64,000 bases of DNA from an uncultured Candidatus Saccharibacteria bacterium (GTDB lineage: Bacteria > Patescibacteriota > Minisyncoccia > Phycocordibacterales > Phycocordibacteraceae): positions 3,588-67,587 of the forward strand of contig CAYNOO010000002.1 in NCBI GenBank assembly GCA_964398865.1, read 5' to 3'. The notes under the pieces are model-generated. The model was not told where the DNA came from, made no database searches, and worked only from the letters and a program-made list of their open reading frames with translations. Shown in pieces: positions 1,413 to 59,107 of the stretch. A program made the position numbers and the translations under genes. Each line of letters begins with the position of its first letter. Position 1 is the stretch's first letter.

Positions 1413-1438
1413 AAGTGATATGATATATCATATCACTT
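1413..1438. repeat. AT-rich perfect palindrome, copy 1 (aaGTGATATGATATATCATATCACtt)
   Basis: A perfect inverted repeat read directly. The same 20-bp core recurs at 21768-21816 and 59080-59107. Confidence 0.8.
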
Positions 1439-1457
1439 CCCCTTCAGTTTTTCCTGA

Positions 1458-2348
1458 CTATACTTGTGCGAAGAAATTTTTTATGACCTGTATGACGGAT
1501 GTGGTTTCCTCTGGAGCCATCCAATGAATATTCTTGTTGTGTTTGAACCACGTTATCTGGCGTTTTGCATAGTGTCGGATTTCTGACTCTAATTCCGTAA
1601 GCATCTCGTCATATGAAATCTGCCCTTGCAGGTGTCGTGCCATATACCGGTACTCAAGCCCTAACTCTTCCATGCGCTCCCATGAGAGTCCGCCCTCATG
1701 GAGGTGTTTTGCTTCCTCCAGCATTCCCGCTTTCATCCTCTCGAGGAGTCGTGTATGAATTTTTTCATTAAGCTCATCCAGAGAAAAAGTGATTCCTATA
1801 TAGAGGACATCATACAGAGATTGCTCAGATGTTTTTGGAACCGTGCCCAATGCTTGAGCAATCTCGATCGCTCGTATCAGACGCACCGGATTTTTTGTGT
1901 CTATAGTTTCTGCTCTCTCAGGGTCTAGCTTTTTCAATCGTGCATTCAATTCTTCCAAGCTCAAAGCCGATAGTTCTAACCGCAACGCTGGATTCGGCGG
2001 GACATCAGGGAGCGTTATCGTTCCAAGTAGGGCATCTATATAAAACCCGGTGCCGCCGACAAGTATGGGGATTTTATGTCGCGCCAGCACAGCGTCCAGA
2101 GTCTCTCTGCCTAAGCGCACGTATTCAGCTGCAGAAAATGTCTCTTTGGGGTCAGCAACATCAATAAGGTGATGCGGAATGCCGTCCATCTCAGCATAGG
2201 TTACTTTTCCGCTTCCAATATCTAACTCTTTATAGACTTGTCTTGAATCGGCAGAAATTATTTCACCTCCGAGAGCCTTGGCAATCTTTATGGAAAGAGC
2301 CGTCTTGCCGGATGCTGTAGGACCGAGTATCGCTATAACTTTAGGCAT
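1458..2348 (-). CDS. miaA: tRNA dimethylallyltransferase
   Basis: N-terminal P-loop AILGPTASGKT, an SADSRQVYKELDIGSGK motif and a length of 296 aa are typical of MiaA. Confidence 0.9.
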   Translation of the reverse strand: MPKVIAILGPTASGKTALSIKIAKALGGEIISADSRQVYKELDIGSGKVTYAEMDGIPHHLIDVADPKETFSAAEYVRLGRETLDAVLARHKIPILVGGTGFYIDALLGTITLPDVPPNPALRLELSALSLEELNARLKKLDPERAETIDTKNPVRLIRAIEIAQALGTVPKTSEQSLYDVLYIGITFSLDELNEKIHTRLLERMKAGMLEEAKHLHEGGLSWERMEELGLEYRYMARHLQGQISYDEMLTELESEIRHYAKRQITWFKHNKNIHWMAPEETTSVIQVIKNFFAQV

Positions 2349-2412
2349 ATGAGCTATGTTACACTGGCTCTGTTATCCAGTGAATTAAAAATAGGCCGCG
2401 CTCAAAGGACGA

Positions 2413-3075
2413 TTGCGCGGCATGATTTCGCTAAATCAAATGGCAAAAGAAAAACAGATAGAAGAGGAGGCGCTCTTTACGAGCATGGTGCGGGTAGGAC
2501 ATCCGATTCCTGATCTTGAGTTTGAAGCGTTTCATAACGAGAAGATCAAGAAAATTCACCTGTCCGATTACAAAGGGAAGTGGCTTGTCCTTTTCTTCTA
2601 TCCTGCTGACTTTACGTTTGTGTGCCCCACAGAGCTTGAAGAGCTTGCCGATTCCCACAAAGCATTTTCCGAATTGGATACTGAGATAGTGAGTATGAGT
2701 GCGGACACGGTATTTGCGCATAAGGCATGGCATGATGCGTCGCCAGCGATAGGGAAAATAGATTTCGCAATGGGTTCTGACCCTGCTGGCAGGCTTTCAC
2801 GCGCGTTTGGCACGTATATCCACGGGGGAGACCTTGAGTGTGCTGATGATGAAGGGCTCTCGCTTCGCGGTACATTCATCATTGACCCCGACGGCATTCT
2901 CTCTACCATGGAGATTCATGACAACTCTATTGGACGCTCAGCCAAAGAGTTGCTTCGCAAGCTTCAAGCCGCTCAATTCGTTCGTGCGCATGGTGGTCAA
3001 GTGTGTCCCGCTGAGTGGCAGCCGGGGGATGACACTCTGAAAGGCGGGGATTTGGATTTGGTAGGGAAGATTTGA
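2413..3075 (+). CDS. peroxiredoxin (AhpC/TSA family)
   Basis: GKWLVLFFYPADFTFVCPTE peroxidatic-Cys motif. The true start is probably an internal Met near 2485. Confidence 0.85.
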   Translation: MRGMISLNQMAKEKQIEEEALFTSMVRVGHPIPDLEFEAFHNEKIKKIHLSDYKGKWLVLFFYPADFTFVCPTELEELADSHKAFSELDTEIVSMSADTVFAHKAWHDASPAIGKIDFAMGSDPAGRLSRAFGTYIHGGDLECADDEGLSLRGTFIIDPDGILSTMEIHDNSIGRSAKELLRKLQAAQFVRAHGGQVCPAEWQPGDDTLKGGDLDLVGKI

Positions 3076-3122
3076 GTTAGCTTTCAGGTGTCAGGTTGCA
3101 GCTATCAGTCTCTGTCTGATAT

Positions 3123-3572
3123 ATGAATGCAGAAGAAGAGTTTCTGAAAGAACTTCGAGGAGCTGATGCCATTATTGGATATTCACCCTTGGAGGATGAA
3201 CCAGATGTACATGATTTTTTGGTAAAGAATCATATTCTTAAACCGGGGCGTTCCATTATTGCCGACAAGCACGCTTCTCCAGATGATTTTGCTGCATCTC
3301 TTTTGAAAGCGCATGCTGGTGAAAAGATCTGTATCCTTATTCCAGGTCGAGAATTTGACGCCTTCGGAGCTCGGCATGGGCGTGGTGGAGGTTGGTATGA
3401 TCGTTTTCTTTCCAAGGCACCGAGAGAGTGGGCACGCATCGGTGTTCTGCACGAGTCGCAATTCTCAACGGAAAAACTCGTTCGCAAAGCGTGGGATGAG
3501 CCGGTGAGCTATTTATTGATTGAAAAAGCGGGAGTTTGGGAGGTTGTATTAGCAGATAAAAAGGCTGAATGA
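3123..3572 (+). CDS. 5-formyltetrahydrofolate cyclo-ligase family protein
   Basis: C-terminal LIPGREFDAFGARHGRGGGWYDRFL matches the 5-FCL signature (GxGxGYYDR). The N-terminal EDEPD motif also fits. At 149 aa the protein is short. Confidence 0.65.
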   Translation: MNAEEEFLKELRGADAIIGYSPLEDEPDVHDFLVKNHILKPGRSIIADKHASPDDFAASLLKAHAGEKICILIPGREFDAFGARHGRGGGWYDRFLSKAPREWARIGVLHESQFSTEKLVRKAWDEPVSYLLIEKAGVWEVVLADKKAE

Positions 3573-3587
3573 TCAGATAATAACGAG

Positions 3588-3668
3588 TGCCCGGGGTGAG
3601 ACTCGAACTCACACCTCTCGCGAGACACGATTTTGAGTCGTGCGCGGCTACCATTACGCCACCCGGGC
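3588..3668 (-). tRNA. tRNA-Leu (anticodon CAA)
   Basis: The reverse complement folds as a cloverleaf: acceptor GCCCGGG/CCCGGGC, anticodon loop CTCAAAA, a long variable arm TCTCGCGAGAGGT (type II) and a T-arm GTGAGTTCGAGTCTCAC. No encoded CCA. Confidence 0.85.
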
Positions 3669-3724
3669 TTCGGTCACGCTATCCTAACGCAAAATTTCTT
3701 TCTTTACCATGTTAGAATTTCCGC

Positions 3725-4675
3725 ATGTCGCAGTTTCAAGGAGATGCAATTTTCTGGGTTGAGGTGGAGAAGATACGCCCGAATCAATACCAGCCGAGAA
3801 CTGAGTTTGATGAAGCGAAGCTGAAAGACCTTGCCGGTTCAATACGCCAGTATGGCGTCTTGCAGCCCTTGATGGTGACGCGTTTTGAGGAGTCGCGAGA
3901 AGATGGCGGGCTCTCAACATACTACGAGCTTATTGCAGGCGAGCGGAGACTCCGAGCCTCAAAACTTGCTGGTCTTTCACAAGTGCCAGTTATCATTCGC
4001 TCCACTGAAGAGCAGAGTCGCGTGAGGTTGGAACTCGCCATCATTGAGAACCTTCAGCGCGAAGATTTGAATGCCATTGATCGCGCACGCGCGTTTGACC
4101 GCTTACAGAAAGAATTTAACTTAAACAACACTGAGATTGCCGCAAAGGTGGGGAAGAGTCGCGAATATGTATCAAACTCGATTCGTCTCTTGGCGCTGCC
4201 AGCCGAGATGCAACAGGCAGTGATTGGAGGCGCAATTTATGAGGGTCATGCGCGCGCACTTCTTATGCTTACGGACAGACCGGAAGAGCAGAAAACGGTG
4301 TTCCGCGACATTCTGGTAAGAAAATTGTCGGTTCGTGACGTCGAACAGATGACGCGTCAAATTGCAGTCGAGAGAGCTCGCAAGCGCGATGTCACTCCGG
4401 AGATTGAGGCGCTTGAGCGTGCCTTCGCGGAGTCGCTAGGCACGAAGGTAGAAATAAAATCACAGGAGAAGGGCGGAAAACTCATCATCGATTTCTTTTC
4501 GACGGAAGACTTGGAGGGAATGCTCGCGCATATGGAGCGCCATAGTGCGTCTCCTGAGGCTAAGAACGCTACTCCTCCGAGCACGGAAACAAGAAATGAC
4601 ATGGTAGACGTGCCTTCAGAGTTGGACTCTGCTCCTGCCGATGATAACTTTTCTCTAGAGCATTTTTCTATTTAA
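3725..4675 (+). CDS. parB: ParB/Spo0J family chromosome partitioning protein
   Basis: ParB box LIAGERRLRAS plus a helix-turn-helix region. No parA gene is adjacent. Confidence 0.9.
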   Translation: MSQFQGDAIFWVEVEKIRPNQYQPRTEFDEAKLKDLAGSIRQYGVLQPLMVTRFEESREDGGLSTYYELIAGERRLRASKLAGLSQVPVIIRSTEEQSRVRLELAIIENLQREDLNAIDRARAFDRLQKEFNLNNTEIAAKVGKSREYVSNSIRLLALPAEMQQAVIGGAIYEGHARALLMLTDRPEEQKTVFRDILVRKLSVRDVEQMTRQIAVERARKRDVTPEIEALERAFAESLGTKVEIKSQEKGGKLIIDFFSTEDLEGMLAHMERHSASPEAKNATPPSTETRNDMVDVPSELDSAPADDNFSLEHFSI

Positions 4676-6198
4676 TTTTTCTCTTTCTTTTTCAACGTAG
4701 CGCGTATGTAGCGACGCGCCGATGCGGTTTTTGCATACTCGAGCCATTTTTTGTTTGGTGTACCTATCTTTTTAGTCTGTATCTCAACAATGTCTCCCTT
4801 ATGAAGTTCCGTGTCGAGCCCCACTAACTTACCGTTCACTTTTGCACCCGACAATAAATCTACGAGATTGGTGTGCACTGCGTACGCAAAGTCTATCGGT
4901 GTTGCCGTTATTGGCAGGTCGATGACATCTCCTTTTGGTGTGAAGACGAACATCCGTTTCGCGAAAAAGTCTTCGCGGAGTGCCTCCTGAAATGCTTGCT
5001 CTCCTTGAAATTCTTCAGCCGCGCTATTGAGGTCCGTGAGCCAGCGCGGTGTCGGCGCAGTCGCCGGCGTAGCGTCTGTTTTCTGCCCGCGTGCCATTTT
5101 CATTAGTGATGGCACGAAGCGCCATGCCCAAGGGACTTTCAGGGCATTTTCAGCACCCTTATGGTGGTTCTTGTAGATGAAGTGAGCTGCGACTCCGAAT
5201 TTGCTTTCTCGCTGCATCTCTTCTGAGCGAATCTGTATCTCGATGATGAGCTTGTGCGGCGTAATGATGGTGGTGTGAAGTGTACGGTAGCCATTGGGTT
5301 TTGGGCTCGCGATGTAATCCTTGATGCGTCCGGGAATCGGTCGCCAGATATTATGGATGACACCAAACGCTCTGTAGCAGTCTTCCATTGTTGGCACGAT
5401 GATACGTATTGCGAAGATGTCGTACACTTTGTCTGGATCGTTGTCTTTTCTGATGAGCTTTGTTGCGAAGCTATGAACATTCTTTACGCGCGCTTCCGTA
5501 CGGAATTTTCGTATGCCCGCCTCGGCAAGTGCTTTTCGAAGGTCATTAAGCGCTCTGTCTAGCGCTTCCTTTTCTGTTTCTCCGCGCTCTTCCAAGAATT
5601 GATGAATCTTCTGGTATCTCTCTGGCTCCAGAGTTTTGAATGCCAAGTCTTCCAGTTGTGCCTTGATGAGACCGATGCCAAGCCGCTCCGCGATAGGCAC
5701 GTATACCTCTTTCGTTTCAAGCGCGATGCGCATTCTCTTTTCGATAGGTTCCACGAAATTAATCGTCTCCATGTTATGCAACCGGTCTGCGAGCTTGATG
5801 ATGATGACGCGGATATCATTTGCCGTTGCGACGAGCAGGCGACGCAAACTCTCGACGTGCCGCTCGACGCCTCGATATTTTAATTTTGAAAGTTTCGTAA
5901 CGCCTTCCACGAGGAATCGCACCGTCGCACCGAATTCTTTTTCTATTTCTTCTATCGTTACAGGAGTATCTTCAACAGTATCGTGGAGAATGCCCGCGAT
6001 TATGGTCTCGCGATCCATTCCTAATTTTGCGAGTGTCACCGCAATAGCTTTCGGATGGATGATATAGGGCTCTCCCGATTTTCGTTTCTCATCTCCGTGC
6101 GCGCGCTTAGCAAATTCATACGCTCCCTGGATAGCTTTCTGGTCTTCCGAGGAAGGCGATTGCATCGCGCGTACTATGTCGTCGGTAGGATGAGGCAT
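4672..6198 (-). CDS. relA: bifunctional (p)ppGpp synthetase/hydrolase (RelA/SpoT family)
   Basis: HD-domain motif HDTVEDT, a RelA/SpoT synthetase core and TGS/ACT-like C-terminus. 508 aa. The stop overlaps the parB stop by 4 nt, so the two genes converge. Confidence 0.9.
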   Translation of the reverse strand: MPHPTDDIVRAMQSPSSEDQKAIQGAYEFAKRAHGDEKRKSGEPYIIHPKAIAVTLAKLGMDRETIIAGILHDTVEDTPVTIEEIEKEFGATVRFLVEGVTKLSKLKYRGVERHVESLRRLLVATANDIRVIIIKLADRLHNMETINFVEPIEKRMRIALETKEVYVPIAERLGIGLIKAQLEDLAFKTLEPERYQKIHQFLEERGETEKEALDRALNDLRKALAEAGIRKFRTEARVKNVHSFATKLIRKDNDPDKVYDIFAIRIIVPTMEDCYRAFGVIHNIWRPIPGRIKDYIASPKPNGYRTLHTTIITPHKLIIEIQIRSEEMQRESKFGVAAHFIYKNHHKGAENALKVPWAWRFVPSLMKMARGQKTDATPATAPTPRWLTDLNSAAEEFQGEQAFQEALREDFFAKRMFVFTPKGDVIDLPITATPIDFAYAVHTNLVDLLSGAKVNGKLVGLDTELHKGDIVEIQTKKIGTPNKKWLEYAKTASARRYIRATLKKKEKN

Positions 6199-7043
6199 GT
6201 TGGAGTGCGGTCGAAAACTTAATTTCGGCTCAATGCAAATTTTATGGCTATGAGACAGGACGGCTCGCTCTCAGCGTATTTCCAATACGTTTCAAGGTCC
6301 GCCGGCGTCTCTTGCTTCAGAAAATCTGCATCTCGCTGATCGAAAGCAAGTGTCCGTCCGCACTCCCTCTAGTGTACAGCGCGAAAGGTCTGAGTTCCAT
6401 GTTTGAAGCGTGGGATATTTGACTGAAGGATTTTTATTTAGTAAAACGTATTTTATGAATGAAAAAGCTCCGCATGTATTTGCGTCATGTATGAATTGCC
6501 TTCACGTCATCATGAGCGACGAGCAGCGAGTAGAGGTAGGGATGGGTAGTTTGAAGATACGGTGGGCTCACGCGGTTTGTCCTAGCTAACTCCCCGAATA
6601 GTTCATGGAAGAGAGGTTTCTCCAGGAAAGCAGTCTCAAATGCGAATTGTGCGGGCAGCCTTTGACTGAAGGGCAAAAGATATGCGAGGGAAGTGGGGAG
6701 TCGGGGCTTGCTCACGAATCCTGCGTCCAAGACATCTTTGGATATTCATCCTAACTTCTCTCTACGTTTTATAGTATAGATGCATGGAAAACAGAAGAGT
6801 TCATCGAATGAGTGACGAAAGGAGAGAGCGTAGAATCAACAATCTACGCAAAGGAGTTCAATATTTAACGGCTGCATGGCTTGAAGGCTCTCCTTCGCCA
6901 GAGAAAAACAAACTTCATCACATTGCTTCAACGGCTCAAGTCGAATTATCGCATTCGCCTGAAGTTTCCCGAACAGGCAGGCATGAAATAGTACGAAGAA
7001 GAGTCGCGATCGTTTTGGCTCGGAAGTCGTGACGTTTCTTTTG

Positions 7044-9473
7044 CTACGCGGCTTTAAGCAGCTCTAGCGCTTCGGGTACAGTCAGTTTCTCAGGATCTAG
7101 GTTTTCTGGAATGCGCACATGTTTGAATCCTTTCTTCAGAAAGAATCCACTCTTTGATTTATAAAGGTAAATCTTTTTCTTGGTACGTGGATGCGTTCCC
7201 ACTTCGCGAGCAATCGCGATACCGGGGCGTCCTTTCTTTGGCTCTTTCAATATCTCCAATGCGCGCTCATAGGTTATTCCGTAAGGCTCGTCAGCACCTT
7301 TGAGAGAGCGAAAATCTCCGTTGTGCACGATAAACGGTCCAAATTTTCCTATGGCTGCTGTGATAGGCATGCTGGAATCAGGATGAGTCCCGAGTTCTCT
7401 CGGAAGAGAAAGCAGTTTCACTGCTTGTTCCATAGTGATTGTTTCAGGATTTATTTCAGGTGGAATGCTCGCTTTCCTGGTGTCAGGTTTCTTTGCCTTC
7501 CTCTTTTTCTCCTTGCCCGCCGAAGCCTCGGCGGGGGCGGGTGCTTTCTCCTCCATCTTTTCTCCCATCTCAAGGTACGGACCGAAGCGACCCACACGCA
7601 CGTGCACTGGGTGCCCCGTTTCTGGGTGATTGCCAATTGATTCTGATTCCTTGATGACCTCTCCCTTTTCGGTGCGCGATCCCTTGCAGTCGGGGAAGCG
7701 AGAACAACTCATGAATACGCCCGTGCGTGAAAGCTTCATGACCATTGGAGCTCCGCACAAGGGGCAGGGGAATTCTGGAGGTACATCGCCCAAGGTTGTG
7801 AGCTTCGCTATCCCTTCTTTTGAAGCGACATCTTTTGAAAACGGACCATAAAAATCAGTGAGAGTCTTTGTGTATTCGCGTTCTCCCGAAGCTATCTGGT
7901 CAAGTTCATCTTCCATTTCCGCCGTAAATGAATCGCTAATGTATTTCTCAAAGTTCTCTTCCAAGAAAGTTGAGACTACTTCGCCGGTTGTGGTCGGATG
8001 AAGTGCTCGTCCTATCTTCTCGACGTATCCGCGATCGACAACCGTCTTTATGATTGATGCATAGGTGGATGGTCTGCCGATGCCGCGCTTTTCTAGCTCC
8101 TTCACGAGACCCGCTTCGGTATAGCGTCCGGGAGGCTGGGTATATTTCTCCTCAGATGCGATCTTCTGCAGTTTTAATGCCTCACCCTTCTTCGCTTCCG
8201 GGAGTATCGTCTCTTCTCCCTTAGCATCGCTATCTGCCGCGAGCCAGCCATCGAAGTGAACGGTTGAGCCAGTAACGCCGAACTCGGGCATTGCCTCGCC
8301 GGAGCCTTGTGCGGAGGCGGGAACTTCAATATTTGCGATGATTTTCGCGCGTGTCATTATCGCGTCTGCCATCTGAGAGGCAACAGTGCGTGCACGAATG
8401 AGCGCGTACAGGCGTTCCTCTTCTTCTGTCGCCCCTGCCGTTTTAACCGAGACATCCGTCGGACGCACTGCTTCATGAGCTTCCTGTGCATTTTTGCTCT
8501 TCGTCTTGTAGGTTCGGATCTCCAAATATTTGTCTCCGTACTCTTTCTTGACGTGAGCCGCTATCGCGCTCACGGCTACGTCAGCGAGGTTCGTGCTATC
8601 GGTGCGCATGTAGGTTATGTGTCCTGCTTCATAGAGTCTTTGCGCGGTGCGCATCGTTCGCGATGGAGAGAAGCCAAGACGTGAACTTGCTGCCTGCTGC
8701 AAGGTGGATGTCGTGAACGGAGCCTTTGGGGAGCGCTTCACTGGCGAAGAGGTGACATCTGCAACTATCCACGCACCTTTTTCACCGTTCGCTACTATTT
8801 TTTCTGCTTCTTCAACGCTGGTCGGTTCAATAGAGCAGGTGGCAGTAAAGGTATCTTCTCGCGGAGTTTGTAAGTCTGCAGTGATGACGAAATATTGCTC
8901 TGGCTTGAATGCGCGAATCTCACGCTCTTTCTCTACGAGTATGCGCAACGCTGGTGACTGCACGCGCCCTGCGGAGAGCCCGTATCGAACTTTTTTCCAA
9001 ATGAGTCCAGAGAGGTCATATCCGACGAGCCGATCAAGCACACGCCTTGCTTCCTGAGCCTTACGAAGGTCTTGGTCAATTTTGCGCGGATGAGCGATTG
9101 CCTCTGTTACAGCGTCCTTTGTAATCTCATTGAAGACGACACGCTTCGCTCCTTTCAGGTTTGCCGCTTCGTTCAAGTGCCAGGCGATAGCTTCTCCTTC
9201 ACGGTCAGGGTCGGTTGCGAGCAATACCTCGTCGGCTTTCATAGCAGCTTCCGCAATCTTCTTGATGACGTCCGCTTTCCCGGGAACCGTAACGTAGCGG
9301 GGAATAAATCCGCCTTCTATGTCAATGGCGTCTTTGCTTGATTTCGGCAGGTCGCGTACGTGACCTACAGACGCAAGCACCTTGTAGCCTGTGCCCAGAT
9401 ATTTTTCAATCGTCTTCGCCTTTGCGGGCGATTCTACGATAACGAGCGTACTCTTTGCGCCTTTTGTTGTCAT
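7044..9473 (-). CDS. topA: DNA topoisomerase I
   Basis: TOPRIM N-terminus (LVIVESPAKAKTIEKYLG), Topo IA core and C-terminal zinc-ribbon Cys clusters. 809 aa. Confidence 0.95.
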   Translation of the reverse strand: MTTKGAKSTLVIVESPAKAKTIEKYLGTGYKVLASVGHVRDLPKSSKDAIDIEGGFIPRYVTVPGKADVIKKIAEAAMKADEVLLATDPDREGEAIAWHLNEAANLKGAKRVVFNEITKDAVTEAIAHPRKIDQDLRKAQEARRVLDRLVGYDLSGLIWKKVRYGLSAGRVQSPALRILVEKEREIRAFKPEQYFVITADLQTPREDTFTATCSIEPTSVEEAEKIVANGEKGAWIVADVTSSPVKRSPKAPFTTSTLQQAASSRLGFSPSRTMRTAQRLYEAGHITYMRTDSTNLADVAVSAIAAHVKKEYGDKYLEIRTYKTKSKNAQEAHEAVRPTDVSVKTAGATEEEERLYALIRARTVASQMADAIMTRAKIIANIEVPASAQGSGEAMPEFGVTGSTVHFDGWLAADSDAKGEETILPEAKKGEALKLQKIASEEKYTQPPGRYTEAGLVKELEKRGIGRPSTYASIIKTVVDRGYVEKIGRALHPTTTGEVVSTFLEENFEKYISDSFTAEMEDELDQIASGEREYTKTLTDFYGPFSKDVASKEGIAKLTTLGDVPPEFPCPLCGAPMVMKLSRTGVFMSCSRFPDCKGSRTEKGEVIKESESIGNHPETGHPVHVRVGRFGPYLEMGEKMEEKAPAPAEASAGKEKKRKAKKPDTRKASIPPEINPETITMEQAVKLLSLPRELGTHPDSSMPITAAIGKFGPFIVHNGDFRSLKGADEPYGITYERALEILKEPKKGRPGIAIAREVGTHPRTKKKIYLYKSKSGFFLKKGFKHVRIPENLDPEKLTVPEALELLKAA

Positions 9474-9530
9474 CAGCGCACACTAGTACGGTATGAATGT
9501 AAATGTGTCAAACCCCTATCCGATTTTTAA

Positions 9531-10382
9531 TCAGAGAATGGAGCGAATCTCACCCATTGATTCCGTAATAATTCTGCGAAGCTCCATCTGCGCTAGAAGC
9601 ACGTTCGCGCTTCCGATAGGCATTCCTAGCGTACGAATTAATTCATCGCGTGACATTGGTTCGTGTAGTATTTCAATCACTCGTCCTTCCTCTTCTGTCA
9701 GCGCGACACTCCTGCTCGTCTCTTCTTTTTTTATATTCAACGCGTCCAAAATATCTTCAGCCGTGCGCACTGGTCTCGCTCCGAGTCCCATAAAAAGATG
9801 CCCGCCCTCACCTCCTTCGGAAAATATAGAGTGAGGCACTATCAGTAACTCCCTATTATATTCAGTTGCGAGCCGGGCAGTTATGAGTGTCCCTGACTTT
9901 AAGCCCGCTTCTATGATGAGTACTGCATGGCTCATGCCGGCCATGAGGCGATTTCGCTTCGGAAATGTATACGGTGCTGCTCGCTCCTCAGGTTCCATTT
10001 CGGAGAGAAGTGCTCCACCGCTATTAACGATGTCGTGCGCTAACGAAAGGTGCGCGCGCGGATAGAGCACGTCTTCCGAAAGCCCTGATCCTGGAACCGC
10101 GATTGTCTGCAAATCTGCTTCAAGTGCAGCCCTATGGGCAACGCCATCGATGCCAAGCGCGAGACCCGAGACTATTGCGACCGGGTACCCAGCAAGTCCC
10201 TGTATCAAATGCTCGCACGTCTCCTTTCCGTACCGGCTCATTCGTCGGGACCCTACGACCGCAAGAAGCCTGGTTTCGATGGGTGGCAACGTACCTCGTA
10301 AATACAGAGTCGATGGAGGGTCAGGAATTTCAGACAAGAGTGGCGGGAAATTCTTCGGGTTTAGTTTTTTGATTTCTACCAT
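9531..10382 (-). CDS. dprA: DNA processing protein DprA (Smf)
   Basis: GLALGIDGVAHRAALEA Rossmann-like DprA motif. The dprA-topA synteny is also conserved. Confidence 0.85.
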   Translation of the reverse strand: MVEIKKLNPKNFPPLLSEIPDPPSTLYLRGTLPPIETRLLAVVGSRRMSRYGKETCEHLIQGLAGYPVAIVSGLALGIDGVAHRAALEADLQTIAVPGSGLSEDVLYPRAHLSLAHDIVNSGGALLSEMEPEERAAPYTFPKRNRLMAGMSHAVLIIEAGLKSGTLITARLATEYNRELLIVPHSIFSEGGEGGHLFMGLGARPVRTAEDILDALNIKKEETSRSVALTEEEGRVIEILHEPMSRDELIRTLGMPIGSANVLLAQMELRRIITESMGEIRSIL

Positions 10383-10503
10383 CGTGTTACTATTTTAGCT
10401 TGGAGTGTTTGTGTTTCCGTAATTTTTCCTCTCCAAGTGATCCCTTCGGATCCGACGAAGCATCGTCTAAAACCTGACACCTACAACCTGTAACCTATTT
10501 ACA

Positions 10504-11787: not shown

Positions 11788-11789
11788 GT

Positions 11790-12620: not shown

Positions 12621-12626
12621 TTTTTT

Positions 12627-14713: not shown

Positions 14714-14806
14714 ATGTCGATTCGCCGCAAGCTTCGCCACTTCCAGAAACAGGAATTTAATTTCCATCAAACCCTCCATTCATTGGAGGGTTTTTTCAAT
14801 CTATGA
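14714..14806 (+). CDS. candidate 30-aa leader peptide (MSIRRKLRHFQKQEFNFHQTLHSLEGFFNL)
   Basis: The ORF runs through the terminator-like hairpin. Its TGA stop overlaps the carA ATG as ATGA. Confidence 0.25.
   Translation: MSIRRKLRHFQKQEFNFHQTLHSLEGFFNL
14769..14796 (+). promoter_or_regulatory. terminator/attenuator hairpin sequestering the carA Shine-Dalgarno (aaaCCCTCCattcatTGGAGGGtttttt)
   Basis: 7-bp GC-rich stem plus a T6 run, 6 nt upstream of the carA ATG. GGAGGG inside the stem is the only Shine-Dalgarno-like sequence for carA. Confidence 0.5.
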
Positions 14807-21767: not shown

Positions 21768-21816
21768 TAAGTGATTTGATATATCATATCAGCGATATGA
21801 TATATCAAATCACTTA
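21768..21816. repeat. AT-rich palindrome, copy 2, expanded form (taaGTGATTTGATATATCATATCAGCGATATGATATATCAAATCACtta)
   Basis: A roughly 49-bp near-perfect palindrome built from two overlapping copies of the family motif. It sits between convergent pyrB and pyrC. Confidence 0.8.
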
Positions 21817-25100: not shown

Positions 25101-25133
25101 AAAAAACACCCTGCGGTAAAGCAGGGTGTTTTT
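25101..25133 (+). terminator. Rho-independent terminator (aaaaaaCACCCTGCggtaaaGCAGGGTGttttt)
   Basis: 8-bp GC-rich stem and a T5 run, downstream of 24415-25083. Confidence 0.8.
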
Positions 25134-26130: not shown

Positions 26131-26156
26131 TTTTAAATGGCTCATTGGGACTCATA

Positions 26157-26190
26157 ACTAATAAATGTCCGACCGGACATTTATTAGTTA
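26157..26190. terminator. perfect hairpin AACTAATAAATGTCCGaccgGACATTTATTAGTT (hairpin family B, copy 1)
   Basis: 16-bp stem downstream of the islet genes. Shares the AAATGTCCG/CGGACATTT core with 57630-57663. Confidence 0.6.
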
Positions 26191-26362
26191 TGGGGGTTTC
26201 TGAGTTTTACATGAAGAGTGAGTAGATCTAAACCGCGCACTGCAGGACTGACCCGCGGAGCATTTTTAGTGCATTTGATATACTGCAGGGATTACTCTAA
26301 CTAAGAACAGGAAGCGTCGCGCTTCAATGAACAGTTACGCGACGCGATTCTGACTGAATCGC

Positions 26363-42093: not shown

Positions 42094-42125
42094 AAAAAAA
42101 CGGCGCCTGTATGGGCGCCGTTTTT
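42094..42125 (+). terminator. Rho-independent terminator (aaaaaaaCGGCGCCtgtatGGGCGCCGttttt)
   Basis: 7-bp GC stem plus a T5 run, directly after the holin-family gene. Confidence 0.8.
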
Positions 42126-45824: not shown

Positions 45825-45853
45825 AAAAAACCTCCCCTAGTGGGAGGTTTTTT
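45825..45853 (+). terminator. Rho-independent terminator (aaaaaaCCTCCCctagtGGGAGGtttttt)
   Basis: GC-rich stem plus a T6 run. Confidence 0.85.
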
Positions 45854-47448: not shown

Positions 47449-47458
47449 ACTTTTTCCG

Positions 47459-48262: not shown

Positions 48263-48290
48263 AAACTGCTAAAGGCAGTTTTTTTATTTT
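48263..48290 (+). terminator. orphan Rho-independent terminator (AAACTGCtaaagGCAGTTTttttatttt)
   Basis: Plus-strand terminator with no plus-strand CDS within 400 bp upstream. Confidence 0.6.
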
Positions 48291-48323
48291 CTAAACAGGT
48301 TCTCTGGTTGTTATACTGAATAT

Positions 48324-52360: not shown

Positions 52361-52374
52361 AGGCTGGAAATGCA

Positions 52375-52509
52375 ATGTCTGCTACAAAGGCTGCACCTGT
52401 AGTTCCAGTGCCGCAAGCAGCTCCGGTTGCTGTTGCTTCAGCTCCCGCGGCACCCCGAACCTATGTCTTGCATCGTGCTCTTGCAGCAGCGTGCGAGTCG
52501 TGTGAGTAA
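52375..52509 (+). CDS. 44-aa Ala/Pro-rich ORF ending ...AAACESCE (RNR R1-type CxxC tail, out of frame with nrdA)
   Basis: Frame 1 stays open across the nrdA stop, back to at least 52237. Confidence 0.3.
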   Translation: MSATKAAPVVPVPQAAPVAVASAPAAPRTYVLHRALAAACESCE

Positions 52510-52608
52510 ATAGATTCAGGATTCATGAAGCATGATTCAAGAATTCTGAAAAACCTTATATATCCCATTTATTAATTCTTGAATCCTGATTCTTAACTCT
52601 TCTCGCTT

Positions 52609-53643
52609 ATGGCAATACAAAGGAACGCAAAACCCGTCGACGTGAACCTCCGTCGCATCATAAATGGTGTCGAAGCGGACGTTATTCAGCTCTATCCTAT
52701 ACGCCATAAGTTTGCGTGGGAGTACTACAACGCGGCAAACTCCAACCACTGGCTTCCGACAGAAATCTCCATGCAGCTCGACATCGAACAGTGGAAGTCG
52801 CCAACCGCTCTGACCTCAGACGAGCGACACGCGTTCGAGACTATTCTCGGGTTCTTTACCACCGCTGACTCAATCGCCGCAAACAATATTGTCATTGGTT
52901 TCTACAAGCATGTCACCAGTCCTGAGGTGCGCATGTATTTGCTTCGCCAGGCATATGAGGAAGCGATTCATACGCATGCGTATCAGTACATCGTGGAGTC
53001 CTTAGGCATGGATGAATCGAAGATATTCAACATGTACCGCGAAGTTGACGCCCTCTACAATAAGGAAGCATTCATTCTCTCGTTTAATGAAGGAATCTTC
53101 GAGAGCAATTTCAAGACCGGCACGTTCGAGGCTGACCAGAAATTCTTAGAGAACTGGTGCGTCTTCTCACTTATCTTGGAGGGTATTTTCTTCTACTCAT
53201 CGTTTGCAGTCATGTTCGGCTTCCAGCGACAGCACAAGCTTACCGGTTCTGCCGAGCAGATTCAGTACATCATGCGCGATGAGTCCATGCACTTGAACTT
53301 CGGCTTGGAAATCATCAATGCTATTCGCGAAGAGAATCCGGAATTGTGGACCAAAAGCTTTCAGGATCGCATCATCGAACTCGTACACCAGGCAGTGAAA
53401 TTGGAATACACCTACGCGAAGGACGTCTTTCCGACAGGAATTTTCGGCTTGAACGCGGACGGCTTCAAGGAATATATTCAATTCATTGCGGACAGAAGAC
53501 TTGAGCGTGTTGGATTGCCTGCGCAGTTCCATTCACAAAACCCATTTCCATGGATGAGCGAGGCGATTGACTTGGCTAAGAAAAAGAATTTCTTCGAAAC
53601 GAGAGTGACGGAATACAAAACAGGCGGAGCCCTCAACTGGTAA
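52609..53643 (+). CDS. nrdB: ribonucleoside-diphosphate reductase beta subunit (class Ia)
   Basis: Ferritin-like di-iron motifs (YEEAIHTHAY, ESMHLNF). Confidence 0.9.
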   Translation: MAIQRNAKPVDVNLRRIINGVEADVIQLYPIRHKFAWEYYNAANSNHWLPTEISMQLDIEQWKSPTALTSDERHAFETILGFFTTADSIAANNIVIGFYKHVTSPEVRMYLLRQAYEEAIHTHAYQYIVESLGMDESKIFNMYREVDALYNKEAFILSFNEGIFESNFKTGTFEADQKFLENWCVFSLILEGIFFYSSFAVMFGFQRQHKLTGSAEQIQYIMRDESMHLNFGLEIINAIREENPELWTKSFQDRIIELVHQAVKLEYTYAKDVFPTGIFGLNADGFKEYIQFIADRRLERVGLPAQFHSQNPFPWMSEAIDLAKKKNFFETRVTEYKTGGALNW

Positions 53644-53855
53644 GAGGTCGCTCGCACCCATTATTCGGGAAACGCTCGGCTTCTCCTGCGGAAGCCTCGC
53701 TCGTCCTCGACCGAACTCTGCTTCGCAGACCAAGCAGTTCGGTCTGCGAATGTTCGCGAATAATGGATACTCGCTTTTAAGTGAAAGGAGGCGCGTGGTA
53801 GGCGGATGTTTGTTTGTAGTCCATAGGTATTAAAGTGGAAATAAAACCTTGACAG

Positions 53856-54266
53856 GTGTTTGTTTTATGCTTTTATGTTTGTGTGGATCAAATAAAGAGA
53901 TTTGAATATCGTGGATTTGATCCGAAGGAAAAGATCCCTCATGGCACAGAGGATGAAGAATTCGGAATGCCTAAGCATTGGTGCGCTATCTGTAAGGATT
54001 GGATAGTGGGCGATAGGGAATGGCGTAAGCACTTAAAAGTTACTGGACATCGAGAACCAGAAACCACCATGAGACCTACATCAGAAAAAATTACATGGGA
54101 AAGAGCTAAGGTACCGCATCATGGTGCGGTTATGGTGGAGAAGGAGGGTGGCGCGCTGAAGCGATATTGCAGTTTCTGTGAGGAATGGAAGAGCGATGAG
54201 GGATGGCTTGATCACATCAACAAGACAGGTCATCGTACCGTTTTTCCGGATCCGAAAAAGCAGTAA
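53856..54266 (+). CDS. tandem C2H2 (U1/matrin-type-like) zinc-finger protein
   Basis: Two C-x2-C-x12-H-x5-H units (WCAICKDWIVGDREWRKHLKVTGH and YCSFCEEWKSDEGWLDHINKTGH). The true start is probably the Met at 53967. Confidence 0.5.
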   Translation: MFVLCFYVCVDQIKRFEYRGFDPKEKIPHGTEDEEFGMPKHWCAICKDWIVGDREWRKHLKVTGHREPETTMRPTSEKITWERAKVPHHGAVMVEKEGGALKRYCSFCEEWKSDEGWLDHINKTGHRTVFPDPKKQ

Positions 54267-54275
54267 ACAAGAATT

Positions 54276-55808
54276 ATGTCTGATAGTTTTATTACAACCG
54301 CTGCCAAGCGGATTTTGTTTTTGTGGCATACTGGAGAAATGTTTGGGTTTTTGAAAAAGACTGACGCGCCGGTACCGGTCACTCTTTACAACACGCTTTC
54401 AAAGACGAAAGAAGAATTTAAGCCGATAGCTGGCAAAAAGGTGAAGATGTACACCTGCGGACCCACGGTCTACGACTATGCGCATATTGGAAACCTGCGC
54501 GCCTATGTCTTTGCCGATACACTTCGCCGGACGCTTGAATACGCGGGGTATAGCGTGAAGCAAATAATCAATATTACGGACGTGGGGCATCTGGCTCAGG
54601 ATTCGGATGATGGCGAAGATAAGATGACAGCGGCTCTGAAGCGCGAAGGCAAGGAGATGACCTTAGAGAACATGAAAGCTTTAGGGGAAGAGTATGCTGG
54701 GTTCTTCATTGAAGACATGAAGGCACTCAATGTGGAGATGCCGTTTGCATTCCCGCGAGCTTCTGACCATATATCTGAGCAGATTGCTTTCATCTCGAGC
54801 TTGTTTGAAAAGGGTTATGCATACAAGACGTCAGACGGCATGTATTTTGATACTGCAAAATTTCCATCCTACGGAACACTAGGTTTAGCTAATTCGGGTC
54901 GCATCATCTCATCTATAAGTGGGCAGCCAGGGCATGCGCGCGTAGCGGCAAACCCTGAGAAGCACGACCAGCGGGATTTTGCGCTTTGGAAATTCAATAA
55001 AACATTGGGATGGGAAGCGCCATGGGGAAAAGGCTTTCCTGGCTGGCATATTGAGTGCACGGCAATGGCAACGAAGTATCTTGGAAAGAGTTTTGACGTG
55101 CATACGGGCGGTATTGACCACATAGCGATTCATCACAACAATGAAATTGCTCAGGCTGAAGCGGTGTCAGGAAAACAGTATGTGAAATATTGGATGCATG
55201 GTGAATTCATCACGATTGAAGGAAAGCGTATTGGCAAATCTGAAGGGAATGCAATTCGCCTGTATCAGCTTCGCGAACGCGACGTGAGTCCAATGGCATA
55301 CAGATATCTACTGCTCACCGCGCATTATCGTTCGCTCTTGAATTTTACCTGGGAAGCAATTTCTGCCGCGCAGACCGCACTTCAAAGAGCGCAACGCGTG
55401 TTTGCAGATTTGCCCCTCGGCGGTCGTGTTTTGCCCACCTATCGTGCAAAATTTGAAGCCGCTATCAATGATGACCTTAATACGCCAGCGGCGATTGCGG
55501 TCCTATGGGAGCTGATCCGCGATGAATCGATAACCCCGGCAGATAAGCGGAAAACGATACTCGATTTTGACCGTGTTTTGGCTTTAGGGTTCGGCAGTGA
55601 TTTGCAATCAGAAGGTGCAAAACTTTCTGTCACTGAATTCTCTGATTTACCACCTGATATAGCATCCCTCGTCAAAGAGCGCGAAGAGGCAAGGAAAGCT
55701 AAAAATTGGGCACGAGCTGATGAATTACGGTTATCTTTAGAGGAACAGGGATTTGTCCTTGAAGATGGCACGGACGGTCCTATAGTCAGAAATACCCGAG
55801 AGGGCTAG
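54276..55808 (+). CDS. cysS: cysteinyl-tRNA synthetase
   Basis: MYTCGPTVYDYAHIGN HIGH-region, KMSKS-like KSEGN, an anticodon-binding domain and a DALR-like C-terminus. The start may be the internal Met at 54339. Confidence 0.9.
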   Translation: MSDSFITTAAKRILFLWHTGEMFGFLKKTDAPVPVTLYNTLSKTKEEFKPIAGKKVKMYTCGPTVYDYAHIGNLRAYVFADTLRRTLEYAGYSVKQIINITDVGHLAQDSDDGEDKMTAALKREGKEMTLENMKALGEEYAGFFIEDMKALNVEMPFAFPRASDHISEQIAFISSLFEKGYAYKTSDGMYFDTAKFPSYGTLGLANSGRIISSISGQPGHARVAANPEKHDQRDFALWKFNKTLGWEAPWGKGFPGWHIECTAMATKYLGKSFDVHTGGIDHIAIHHNNEIAQAEAVSGKQYVKYWMHGEFITIEGKRIGKSEGNAIRLYQLRERDVSPMAYRYLLLTAHYRSLLNFTWEAISAAQTALQRAQRVFADLPLGGRVLPTYRAKFEAAINDDLNTPAAIAVLWELIRDESITPADKRKTILDFDRVLALGFGSDLQSEGAKLSVTEFSDLPPDIASLVKEREEARKAKNWARADELRLSLEEQGFVLEDGTDGPIVRNTREG

Positions 55809-55859
55809 CTGACCGTTACCCCTATGGTATTCTGTTTTCATTAACCACATACACTTTTT

Positions 55860-56387
55860 ATGAGCAGAAAAAATATAAATATTATTGTCATATTGGCAGT
55901 CGCTGTCGTTGTTATTTTCATCGGACTCGGGTTTATGGGTCTCGGCGGATTTGGCAGCATTGCTGCTCCTCAAACAGAAGAGACTGGAGCACAAGCGATT
56001 TTGAATGAAATTCAGGATACTGGCACTGTTGCTGATCTTCGCGTTCAGGAAATCACGGTAGGAGAGGGCGACCCTGTTGCCGCAGGCGACACGTTAAGTG
56101 TTGTGTACATCGGCGTCTTGCCGGACGGGACAGTCTTTGATTCCACAGATGCGCATGGCGGCGTACCCTACACGTTCACTATTGGCACAGGAGCGGTTAT
56201 CCAAGGATGGGAAAAAGGATTGATTGGCATGAAAGAGGGCGGCAGGCGTCTCCTTGCTGTGCCTCCAGCACTTGGCTACGGCTCGGAACCATACGGAGAG
56301 ATTCCTGCGAATGCCACATTAATCTTTGACGTACAGCTCGTGAAGCGAGTGCCTGCAGGTGCTCCCGTGACTCCCGCGGTAGAGTAG
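55860..56387 (+). CDS. FKBP-type peptidyl-prolyl cis-trans isomerase, membrane-anchored
   Basis: N-terminal transmembrane segment plus an FKBP domain (VVYIGVLPDGTVFDST...IQGWEKGLIGMKEGGRRLLAVPPALGYG...LIFDVQL). Confidence 0.85.
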   Translation: MSRKNINIIVILAVAVVVIFIGLGFMGLGGFGSIAAPQTEETGAQAILNEIQDTGTVADLRVQEITVGEGDPVAAGDTLSVVYIGVLPDGTVFDSTDAHGGVPYTFTIGTGAVIQGWEKGLIGMKEGGRRLLAVPPALGYGSEPYGEIPANATLIFDVQLVKRVPAGAPVTPAVE

Positions 56388-56392
56388 CACTA

Positions 56393-57631
56393 ATGTCGTC
56401 AGACCGGTTTTCCTTCACGATTGAACACGCGCTCCCCAATGGAGCGCGTGTTGGCGTTATTGAGACTCCGCACGGTTCTTTCCATACGCCGGCATTCGTG
56501 ACGGTTGGCACTAAAGCAACAGTGAAAGCGGTACTGCCTGATGATTTGAAAGAGCGAGTTGGAGCAGAAGTAGCACTGGCAAACACGTATCATCTTTTCC
56601 TTCAGCCAGGTGAGGACATTATTGCGGAAGCTGGAGGGCTTCATGCGTTCATGGGGTGGAGCGGTCCTTTGATGACAGATTCGGGAGGCTTCCAAGTGTT
56701 CTCGCTCGGCGTAGGATTTGGGAAAGGTGTTTCAAAATTCACTTCCACCTCAGATGTAGGACATACGATGTCCTACATGCCGACCCTTTACGATGAGGAA
56801 GTACGCTCGCAGCATGGCAAACTCGCCATTGTCGACGATGAAGGGGTTTCTTTTACGTCACACTTAGACGGTACCCTATACCGCTTTACTCCTGAGCGCT
56901 CGATCGAGATACAGCATAAGCTCGGCGCCGATATGTTCTTTGCGTTCGATGATTTCGTCTCGCCTGAAGCGCCACGCGAGGAGCAGATAAGCTCGATGCG
57001 TCGGACGCATGCGTGGGCGGAGCGATCCCTCACCACGCATCGCGCGAACCTTGAGGCTCGAAAACGCCAAGCTATGTACGGCATCGTGCAGGGAGGTAGG
57101 TATGCAGATTTGCGTCAGAAGAGCGCGGAAGAGATAGGCTCAATGGGTTTTGATGGCATCGGCATCGGTGGAACTTTTTCAAAAGCAGATTTGGGAGATA
57201 CGCTTCATGCTGCAATTCTCCCGCTACCAAAAGAATTGCCGCGGCACCTTCTTGGCATAGGGGAGCCGGAAGATATCTTTGAAGCGGTCGCGCGCGGTAT
57301 TGATTCGTTCGACTGCGTGCAGCCAACAAGACTTGCCCGAACCGGCACGATATATACTGCTCGCGGCAAGATAAATATTCTCAATGAAAAATATATTCGT
57401 GATTTTTCTCCACTTGATCTGGAAACCGGAGGCTACGCTTCTGAGCATTTTTCAAAAGCCTACCTCGCACACCTCTTTCGCGCGAAAGAAATGCTCGGCG
57501 CCACCATCGCCTCCTTGCATAATCTTTATTTCTTGACCTCGCTCATGAAGGATATCCGTTCCTCAATCCTGGAAGATAGGTTTGACGCATTTCGAGATTC
57601 TTTCCTCCAAAAGTATTTATTGAAGACATAA
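56393..57631 (+). CDS. tgt: queuine tRNA-ribosyltransferase
   Basis: FSFTIEHALPNGARVGVIETPHGSFHTPAFVTVGT N-terminus, a TIM barrel and a C-terminal Zn subdomain. Confidence 0.85.
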   Translation: MSSDRFSFTIEHALPNGARVGVIETPHGSFHTPAFVTVGTKATVKAVLPDDLKERVGAEVALANTYHLFLQPGEDIIAEAGGLHAFMGWSGPLMTDSGGFQVFSLGVGFGKGVSKFTSTSDVGHTMSYMPTLYDEEVRSQHGKLAIVDDEGVSFTSHLDGTLYRFTPERSIEIQHKLGADMFFAFDDFVSPEAPREEQISSMRRTHAWAERSLTTHRANLEARKRQAMYGIVQGGRYADLRQKSAEEIGSMGFDGIGIGGTFSKADLGDTLHAAILPLPKELPRHLLGIGEPEDIFEAVARGIDSFDCVQPTRLARTGTIYTARGKINILNEKYIRDFSPLDLETGGYASEHFSKAYLAHLFRAKEMLGATIASLHNLYFLTSLMKDIRSSILEDRFDAFRDSFLQKYLLKT

Positions 57632-57663
57632 CGTTTAAATGTCCGGTCGGACATTTAAACGTT
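57630..57663. terminator. perfect hairpin AACGTTTAAATGTCCGgtcgGACATTTAAACGTT (hairpin family B, copy 2)
   Basis: Starts at the tgt stop codon. Shares the AAATGTCCG/CGGACATTT core with 26157-26190. Confidence 0.6.
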
Positions 57664-57959
57664 ATCTGAGTACACGACTTTACAAGTAAATTTTTCCTGT
57701 TATTATCCTACACAATATGGCATTTGGAATGCGGGAGACAGCAGTTCGCACAGAGGGAGCATTTCAATGCGAAAGGTGCGAGGATAAAGGCGTTTACGAA
57801 ATGGGAGTCTGGAATAGATCTCTGCAAATTGAGCAAACTCGCTACAACGCATGTTATTGCAAGGAGGGAGAGCGGTGGCAAGCTATTCTTCCTGCCAATC
57901 GACCTTTCTGACGGTCATTTTGCTAAAACTAAGCGAGCACAAAAGAGTACAATGGGGGC

Positions 57960-59087
57960 ATGGAACCCCTCGCCGCCAAGATACGACCCAAGAACCTTGA
58001 TGAGTTCACTGGGCAGGAGCACCTAGTAGGAGCAGGCAAGCCGCTTCGCGTTGCGATAGAAGAGAAGCATCGTTTCTCATTCATATTGTGGGGACCACCA
58101 GGGGTTGGGAAGACGACGCTTGCACGCATATATGCCGATTCACTGGATGCTGTATTTTTTGAACTCTCTGCCGTTGCGGCGGGGAAAGACGATATTCGTA
58201 ACGTTGCGGCTGCTGATACGGAAGGCAAACCAAAAATACTTTTCTTGGATGAGATTCATCGTTTCAATAAGGCACAGCAGGATTTCCTTCTGCCGTTTGT
58301 AGAGAAGGGAGAGTTGACGCTCATTGGTGCAACCACGGAGAATCCGTCTTTTGAAGTTATTCCAGCGCTCTTGTCTCGTGCACGTGTGTTTGTTTTAAAA
58401 CCCATTGCAGAAGATGAAATGAAAGGGATAGTGAAGCGAACAGGCATCAAGACAGGTAAAGGAGCACTCGACTGGATCATCGCGTATTCGAACGGCGACG
58501 CACGAGCTGCCATAACTATTATTGAGAACACTGAGCGTTTGTATGGGAAAGTCACATCAGAAACGCTTCAAGAATCATTGCAGTCAGGGAGACTCCGCTA
58601 CGACAAGAAAGGCGAAGAGCATTTCGATACTATCTCTGCCTTCATAAAAAGCATGCGGGCAAGTCAGCCTGATGCCGCGATGTATTATCTCGCTCGCATG
58701 CTTCAGGGAGGAGAAGATCCGGTGTTTGTTGCACGGCGTATGGTGATTTTTGCGAGCGAAGACATAGGACTCGCGCAGCCAACCGCCTTGGTAGTGGCGA
58801 ACGCAGTTTTTGATGCAGTGCGAGCTATTGGAATGCCAGAGGCTTCGATAAACCTCGCACACGGTGTTGCGTATCTATCTCGCTCTAAAAAAGACCGTAG
58901 CGCCTACGATGCCCTCATTGCCGCCGGGGCAGATGCTGAAAAGACCGGCAATCTCCCCATTCCTTTACATGTACGAAATGCCCCAACCAAATTGATGAAA
59001 GAGCTTGGCTACGGAAAGGGGTATAAAAAATATAATACTGAAAGCTACCTACCCGACAAATTAAAGAACAAAAAATATCTTAACTGA
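57960..59087 (+). CDS. rarA: replication-associated recombination protein A (AAA+ ATPase)
   Basis: IRPKNLDEFTGQEHL, P-loop GPPGVGKTT, a DEIHRF Walker B and MgsA C-terminal helices. 375 aa. Confidence 0.8.
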   Translation: MEPLAAKIRPKNLDEFTGQEHLVGAGKPLRVAIEEKHRFSFILWGPPGVGKTTLARIYADSLDAVFFELSAVAAGKDDIRNVAAADTEGKPKILFLDEIHRFNKAQQDFLLPFVEKGELTLIGATTENPSFEVIPALLSRARVFVLKPIAEDEMKGIVKRTGIKTGKGALDWIIAYSNGDARAAITIIENTERLYGKVTSETLQESLQSGRLRYDKKGEEHFDTISAFIKSMRASQPDAAMYYLARMLQGGEDPVFVARRMVIFASEDIGLAQPTALVVANAVFDAVRAIGMPEASINLAHGVAYLSRSKKDRSAYDALIAAGADAEKTGNLPIPLHVRNAPTKLMKELGYGKGYKKYNTESYLPDKLKNKKYLN

Positions 59088-59107
59088 TATGATATATCAT
59101 ATCAGTT
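59080..59107. repeat. AT-rich perfect palindrome, copy 3 (ttaaCTGATATGATATATCATATCAGtttt)
   Basis: Overlaps the rarA stop and lies 57 bp upstream of uvrB. The CTG...CAG ends are faintly LexA-box-like. Confidence 0.8.

Follow-up and report, generated by a model that had tools for sequence, protein, structure and literature searches.

Perfect, dispersed palindromes of Patescibacteria as putative operators of a co-diversifying Trp-repressor-family protein

The operators of TrpR and of HisR (YerC) are 20-bp palindromes (PMC9413887). The HisR site precedes about half of hisR genes, which are thus autoregulated, and in TrpR the residues Ile79 and Ala80 are among six that are listed as contacting DNA (PMC9413887). 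This study concerns a stretch of 64,000 nucleotides from an uncultured Candidatus Saccharibacteria bacterium (contig CAYNOO010000002.1 of assembly GCA_964398865.1, positions 3,588 to 67,587, forward strand; the whole stretch is called the window), in which a short AT-rich palindrome occurs at three places. These palindromes are probably the DNA sites, and hence putative operators, of an autoregulated dimer of the Trp-repressor family that is specific to the Patescibacteria, or Candidate Phyla Radiation (CPR). To our knowledge, gene regulation in the Patescibacteria is almost unstudied. A 2024 perspective on the phylum does not mention transcription factors or promoters, and a literature search returned no description of a TrpR-like CPR protein or of the motif, a search with the sequence string likewise being without result.

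In the window, the exact 20-mer TGATATGATATATCATATCA occurs at 1416-1435 and at 59085-59104 with no mismatches, and a doublet of imperfect copies is found at a further site:

Site 1, 1413..1438, no strand: 26-bp perfect palindrome, core 1416-1435, ends AAGTGATA...TATCACTT
Site 2, 21768..21816, no strand: two imperfect, mutually inverted units that form one hairpin with 23-bp arms and a 3-nt loop
Site 3, 59082..59107, no strand: 26-bp perfect palindrome, core 59085-59104, ends AACTGATA...TATCAGTT

The units of site 2 differ from the 20-mer by one mismatch (21772-21791) and by two (21793-21812). The flanks of sites 1 and 3 differ from one another (G/C and C/G), each pair being complementary. Shuffling the window 100 times with dinucleotides preserved gives no match at up to three mismatches, whereas the window itself has four, and the rest of its 64 kb holds no further site with fewer than six mismatches to the 20-mer. 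The window has a GC content of 48% and the motif one of 25%; at 48% GC the 18-mer core is expected about 2e-5 times per 1-Mb genome. The initial annotation, which was made from the letters of the window, had described three palindromic sites with differing, complementary flanks, an expanded duplicate of about 49 bp at the second, and the neighbouring genes miaA, convergent pyrB and pyrC, the rarA stop and uvrB a short way downstream; all of this is borne out, with the 20-mer exact at two of the sites and present as two inverted, imperfect units of a single 49-bp hairpin at the other.

The palindromes form a repeat family, and its distribution is phylum-wide. A scan of GTDB species representatives places the core GATWTGATATATCAWATC in at least 113 loci, and the copy numbers per genome that it yields are lower bounds. 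Many copies per genome are found in mid-GC (45-58%) metagenome-assembled genomes (MAGs) of Patescibacteria, with at least 10 in JAIELV01 and at least 12 in JALHPI01; SBAW01, CAIOKC01, DATKGP01 and JACRFJ01 are also multi-copy, and together these MAGs span Paceibacterota, Kaiserbacteria, Saccharimonadales and others. The proteins of the window have their greatest similarity to such mid-GC MAGs. Among the matches listed, those outside the Patescibacteria nearly always come as one copy to a genome, the genome often being AT-rich, and they fit chance, since about 35 or more are expected in 596 Gb. The density is about one site per 20-50 kb, the window having three loci in 64 kb. Viral contigs hold just two copies of the 20-mer, so the palindrome is not a phage feature. 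The initial annotation would have been contradicted by a motif confined to its three sites, with no conservation in relatives; instead the motif recurs elsewhere and is conserved in them.

The candidate partner of the palindrome emerges from four genomes that carry the motif of the window, in each of which the gene for a PF01371 (Trp_repressor) protein of about 140 amino acids has a copy 13-55 nt upstream of its ATG. The proteins of two such loci (L096 and L094) score 46-49 bits against a PF01371 cutoff of 27, the domain is present in 120 of 120 homologues among the matches listed, and clustering at 90% identity leaves the family with more than 880 clusters. The L094 regulator has its closest homologue in P0001, which comes from a different sample than the window. 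An AlphaFold model (pLDDT 83) has a TrpR-like core with two additional C-terminal helices, for which the best Foldseek matches are 3FRW, 3KOR and 1TRO, and a hidden Markov model search has 3FRW, 3KOR, 3G1C and TrpR among its best. The equivalog model for TrpR (20-28 bits, cutoff 67) is not reached. An identity with HisR was considered and rejected, the YerC/YecD equivalog TIGR02531 scoring about 29-30 bits, below its cutoff of 42.2, with no his genes beside the sites; in the loci examined, neither his nor trp genes adjoin them. By these profile scores, the CPR protein is a member of the TrpR family and not an orthologue of HisR/YerC or of TrpR.

Loci were also fetched by the protein alone, which gave 80 metagenome loci, about 60 of them distinct and 48 non-redundant, with genes called crudely as longest open reading frames (ORFs). 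In the majority of the distinct loci the regulator ATG has a perfect palindrome 0-30 nt upstream, with a median arm of 10 nt and a maximum of 21, one palindrome being 42 bp long. The gene is bracketed: the identical palindrome recurs 4-120 nt past the stop in 41 of the 48 non-redundant loci, where the next gene is co-directional in 19, convergent in 18 and without an assigned direction in 4. Downstream copies are not significantly longer-armed than upstream copies (p=0.25). Perfect palindromes with arms of at least 8 nt occur at 2.17 per kb within 200 nt of the gene as against 0.085 per kb elsewhere, a 25-fold difference. The palindrome is the exact 20-mer of the window in L138, L142 and L173, and L114 has the 18-nt core; the other loci have variants that are specific to a lineage and share an AT centre, such as ACTATGATATATCATAGT, GACTTGATATATCAAGTC, GTTCCATATATGGAAC and TTTCTTATAAGAAA. 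Counterparts of site 2 are also found beside the gene, as a doublet of the same type directly downstream of it in L094 and as both units, about 50 nt apart, downstream of it in L195. The genes most often next to the regulator, judged by eye and with weak synteny, are a RecG-like gene upstream in nine loci, RuvB in five and UvrC in three, which together with rarA and uvrB in the window hints at a loose DNA-repair neighbourhood.

Bracketing is not confined to the regulator gene. In a Saccharimonadales MAG an XRE-family helix-turn-helix (HTH) gene (L103, 6216-6666), and in a Paceibacterota MAG a gene for a zincin-like metallopeptidase (L098, 5050-5601), each lie between two palindromes of the type seen in the window. 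In L191 (about 210-231) and L192 (about 5462-5485) there is an extra palindrome with the same architecture that belongs to another class than that of the local regulator, which hints that one genome may hold paralogous regulators with separate sets of sites.

Protein and palindrome vary together. In an alignment of the proteins, the residues that open the HTH's second helix ('VG-x-D-T-[IV]-x-[KR]') change with operator class. When the approximately 146 alignment columns are ranked by mutual information, residue 77 (D77) is first for positions 3, 4 and 5 of the operator, counted from the dyad, and residue 76 (L76) for positions 6 and 8, so that these two are the top columns for five of the six variable positions. 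Aspartate pairs with GATA|TATC, alanine, threonine, serine or asparagine with CATA|TATG, 'VS-x-K' with CTTA|TAAG, and threonine or serine at 76 with TTGATA. Through the YerC-like structures 3FRW, 3KOR and 3G1C, residues 76 and 77 align to Ile79 and Ala80 of TrpR. The covariation is statistical evidence that residues of the recognition helix determine the operator sequence.

Comparative evidence that the palindromes are binding sites of the TrpR-like protein is thus strong, and a mechanism may be proposed in which a dimer would read the 20 bp in the middle of the palindrome, with contacts to positions 3-8 from the dyad made by the residues that begin the recognition helix. Operators of the commonest class have TATCAT (-10) in the right arm and a -35-like TTGACC, TTGTCA, TTGTCC or TTGTTA 17 nt upstream of it, and the predicted start is 1-3 nt before the ATG. 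For this one class, we infer that the core promoter of an almost leaderless regulator mRNA is overlapped by the operator and that binding would autorepress; at its own gene, where the site overlaps the -10 region, the protein would in this way repress itself. At the dispersed sites, bound protein might repress or insulate adjacent promoters, such as that whose -35 lies at site 1 or that of uvrB beyond site 3, and between convergent genes, as at site 2, it could serve as a roadblock jointly with a strong RNA hairpin. The outer arms point to hairpin formation, because dimer contact does not explain them; they may be selected, as an RNA 3'-end hairpin, or may result from hairpin-templated correction. 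An effector and a physiological role are presumed for the protein along with binding and repression.

The features next to the sites in the window are as follows:

1386..1414, minus strand: sigma-70-type promoter-like site (TTGACA, 17-nt spacer, TATCAT), with 11 of 12 matches, by consensus match only
1458..2348, minus strand: miaA, with site 1 just beyond its 3' end
57960..59087, plus strand: rarA/mgsA (AAA+ ATPase), with its TGA stop within the core of site 3
59164..61248, plus strand: uvrB, downstream of site 3

Site 1 lies 23 nt past the stop of miaA and as RNA would form a hairpin of -13.8 kcal/mol (z -4.8). The promoter-like site is 1 nt from its core, with site 1 abutting the -35, and faces a 130-aa ORF with a signal peptide at 966-1358; shuffles of the region give on average 0.7 such promoter-like sites. 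Site 2 sits between the convergent pyrB (end 21710) and pyrC (end 21842), has a predicted RNA folding energy of -30 to -32 kcal/mol on either strand, and shows neither a promoter-like nor a terminator-like site on scanning. At site 3 the first three bases of the core are the TGA stop of rarA, and the site ends 56 nt before the ATG of uvrB (59164). The uvrB promoter element GTTATACT is 47 nt downstream of site 3. Its -10-like TATACT (59152-59157) stops just 6 nt short of the ATG and a Shine-Dalgarno sequence is missing, so that uvrB may be translated from a leaderless mRNA. The -10-to-ATG geometry of uvrB is shared by many of the regulator genes of relatives.

The positions of the sites at gene ends bring up the reading that they are mainly RNA hairpins, that is, atypical terminators or 3'-end stabilisers in which the conserved core is incidental. 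Many copies are indeed at the 3' ends of genes or separate convergent genes, arms reach 34-42 bp with an outer sequence that is unique, and site 2 reaches about -31 kcal/mol on both strands. Sites 1 and 2, however, have no T-run and on scanning no canonical U-tract terminator, and at site 3 the terminator scan flags only the minus strand, where no gene needs terminating. Four GC-rich hairpins flanked by A-runs and T-runs (14769-14793, 25102-25133, 42096-42125 and 45825-45853) look like bidirectional intrinsic terminators, and because of these canonical hairpins the organism appears to have ordinary terminators besides the AT-rich palindromes; in a relative, rarA itself ends in a canonical terminator of a GC-rich hairpin and T-run (L073). 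A terminator would need neither a phylum-wide AT-rich core nor covariation with a recognition helix, and copies are also found just upstream of start codons and in divergent regions. RNA hairpins as the main function are therefore improbable, and the statement of the initial annotation that these are not classical terminators stands. An Rfam scan at gathering thresholds returned only two tRNAs.

The junction that holds site 3 can be compared with relatives in which the regulator gene is present. In L191 and L193, RarA is 74-78% and UvrB 77% identical to the proteins of the window. In L193, rarA is followed by a HAD-like gene, two palindromes, the regulator, two more palindromes and then uvrB, an order that could be read in part in L191 as well. 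Their palindrome is of another class (TTGTACCATATATGGTACAA) and lies upstream of the same uvrB promoter element, the L193 element GTTATAGT matching that of the window with GTTATA(C/G)T in the corresponding position. The rarA-uvrB gap of the window is 76 nt and contains one palindrome. Since the window has a solo palindrome where relatives hold the cassette, site 3 is either a remnant of a regulator cassette that was lost or relocated, or a conserved site upstream of uvrB that co-evolved with the regulator. In L193 there is also a duplication of the uvrB promoter and about the first 14 codons (NFKLVSQYRPAGG) at 1957-2030, some 150 nt before the real start at 2186, which suggests a past rearrangement or insertion at that spot.

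The closeness of site 3 to a classical SOS gene and its CTG...CAG ends, together with a superficial likeness of the GATA repeat to the Fur box, had led the initial annotation to name Fur and LexA as candidate regulators. Its broader proposal, in which the palindromes are the operator of a dimeric regulator and have REP-like traits, stands up; the two named candidates do not. The best ungapped match to the 19-bp Fur box GATAATGATAATCATTATC is 10/19, and the repeat period is 5 nt and not 6. The ends that recall LexA are found at site 3 only, with N16 and not N10 spacing, site 1 having GTG...CAC, and no motif of the type CTGT-N8-ACAG or GAAC-N4-GTTC is common to all copies. None of the copies has a linked fur or lexA gene, whereas linkage to a TrpR-family gene is seen in dozens of loci, and operators of the Fur family or of LexA are hardly credible here.

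Several observations weigh against the assignment of the palindromes as operators and need to be set beside it. The regulator gene is absent from the 64-kb window, and that of the window's own genome was not found, only a 1.3-kb contig having been recovered past the window. Support for a -35 over all operator classes is weak (mean 2.83, as against 2.47 for a mirror control, p=0.018). Phylogeny is common to the covariation and to every other alignment column, a concern that is reduced because the residues were ranked against all columns. The loci that carry the motif, 389 kb in all, contain the 20-mer 44 times in exact form and 11 times with one mismatch; a single copy has two mismatches, and no copy has three to five, an all-or-none perfection that ordinary regulons do not show. 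By hand count, about 11 of some 40 intergenic sites, or about a quarter, lie between convergent genes. The motif also occurs inside housekeeping genes, always translated as DMIYHI or YDISY. Arms of 13 nt or more are found at 24 of 62 sites where about one is expected, and the outer arms vary yet stay complementary, for which a dimeric HTH protein does not account; the arm lengths of in-gene and intergenic sites differ as a trend only (p=0.096). A regulon defined by function was looked for and rejected, since the genes beside the sites have no common theme: identified mostly by eye and in a few cases by Pfam, they include gatA, gatB, ndk, trxB, rluD, a LOG-family gene, dedA, a zincin, a sigma factor, an XRE gene and uvrB. 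A link to pyr clusters was also considered, a site lying between pyrD and pyrE in L031 as well, and was set aside as within chance because the density is about one site per 20 kb.

Some of these traits would suit a repeat that mainly propagates itself, similar to repetitive extragenic palindromes (REPs) and their hairpin-forming doublets (REPINs), with copies that spread by copy and paste and are not selected and with the TrpR-like protein as a binding or mobilising partner. Like the genes for REP-associated tyrosine transposases (RAYTs), the gene has its own repeat on either side, and the repeat is lineage-specific and co-evolves with the protein. The all-or-none perfection of copies, the inverted doublets (site 2 and L094), the position of the window's solo palindrome exactly where relatives have the bracketed gene, and compensatory arm changes within one genome (AAACCT/AGGTTT and AAATCT/AGATTT in SBAW01) can all be read in the same way. 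So can the miaA gene of L012 (about 420-460), which compared with that of L034 and with the MiaA of the window has a palindrome as an in-frame insertion of 24 nt that adds eight residues including DMIYHI. The other in-gene miaA site, however, shows no indel against orthologues, nor do those in PheT and MTHFS in alignments made by hand. Distant genomes have in-gene sites at matching positions (MurD in two, MiaA in two, ArgS in three), and the ArgS variant differs by lineage, DMIYHI in one and DLIYQI in another; because these positions are conserved and the ArgS variant is lineage-dependent, selection on the sites is suggested. The protein is an HTH fold only, without a recognisable catalytic domain, the copy number is low, at about one per 20-50 kb compared with hundreds for REPs, and no target-site duplications were seen. 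Self-propagation as the main explanation is thus unlikely, though it deserves more weight than the RNA hairpins.

Near-perfect sites that occur in small numbers per genome, within genes as well as between them, and whose in-gene positions are conserved would also be expected of chromosome organisation, the sites then serving a nucleoid-associated protein in the manner of parS, matS or Noc-binding sites (NBS) and not as promoter operators. A complete parB gene is present in the window at 3725-4675 (ParB_N, HTH_ParB and ParB_C), and yet no canonical parS is found in its 64 kb; the palindrome was tried as parS and rejected, there being no match to TGTTNCACGTGAAACA at up to two mismatches and the palindrome core being unrelated. 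On the 831-kb contig of JAIELV01, however, the sites are scattered without clustering, the partner is an HTH protein of the TrpR family whose known relatives are ligand-controlled repressors, and it is at the protein's own promoter that the sites are strongest and most constant. Such an organising function is very improbable. Because of the REP/RAYT-like and parS-like traits, the selfish-repeat, hairpin or terminator, and chromosome-organisation readings are retained as rivals of operator function or as layers upon it.

A second, unrelated palindrome family is present in the window at 26153-26192 and 57628-57665, its copies sharing the core AAATGTCCG-NN-CGGACATTT and having arms 18-19 nt long. 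One of them directly follows the stop of tgt, upstream of rarA, and the family has no match in the 195 fetched loci.

A bolder combination of these elements is possible, although we hold it only tentatively: throughout the phylum the TrpR-like protein and its perfect site would co-diversify fast, and the site would spread over the genome, to intergenic positions, to gaps separating convergent genes and even in frame into essential genes, so that the whole would be either a protein-dependent network of insulators, roadblocks or terminators, or a selfish 'operator repeat' without a transposase. Whether or not it goes so far, an association of a palindrome with a TrpR-family regulator connects an exact site on the DNA with a protein family that is widespread and so far uncharacterised. 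The covariation of residues 76/77 with operator positions 3-8 is a readable specificity code, and the pairing of palindrome and regulator offers a starting point for locating promoters and regulons in CPR genomes. If true, a co-diversifying network of protein and sites could be a major regulatory layer in minimal genomes, and the odd behaviour of the sites may reveal how binding sites spread in very small genomes.

Compared with the described systems, the CPR protein most closely resembles HisR (YerC) and TrpR, with which it shares PF01371, its nearest solved relatives being the YerC-like 3FRW, 3KOR and 3G1C and then TrpR. A palindromic operator of 20 bp, a site upstream of the protein's own gene, and specificity residues that align to the DNA contacts Ile79 and Ala80 of TrpR are also held in common. 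The CPR protein differs in being about 45 amino acids longer, with two extra helices, and in its operator, TGATATGATA|TATCATATCA; its sites are perfect, dispersed, found also in genes and at 3' ends, and bracket the regulator, and its specificity diversifies fast between lineages. REP/REPIN-RAYT systems also have short palindromes that flank a cognate gene, are dispersed between genes, are lineage-specific, and occur as inverted doublets able to form long hairpins; however, RAYT is a Y1 HUH transposase whereas the CPR partner is a TrpR-fold HTH protein, there are tens of CPR copies per genome and not hundreds, the copies occur in coding regions as well, and the palindrome is without the conserved GTAG head. 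KorA/KorB of IncP plasmids and ParB-parS likewise combine near-perfect palindromes at promoter and non-promoter positions with a small dimeric HTH protein, and KorA is among the weak fold matches of the CPR protein, but the protein family is another one and the CPR system is chromosomal and phylum-wide, with no partition function indicated. Rickettsia palindromic elements (RPEs) resemble the in-gene sites in being palindromes in frame inside housekeeping genes; they are 100-150 bp long and have no known cognate binding protein, whereas the CPR unit is 18-24 bp and is mostly present without an indel. What appears to be new here, as judged from these sequence comparisons, is a CPR-specific, fast co-diversifying regulator of the TrpR family whose sites are perfect, dispersed and in part extended into hairpins.

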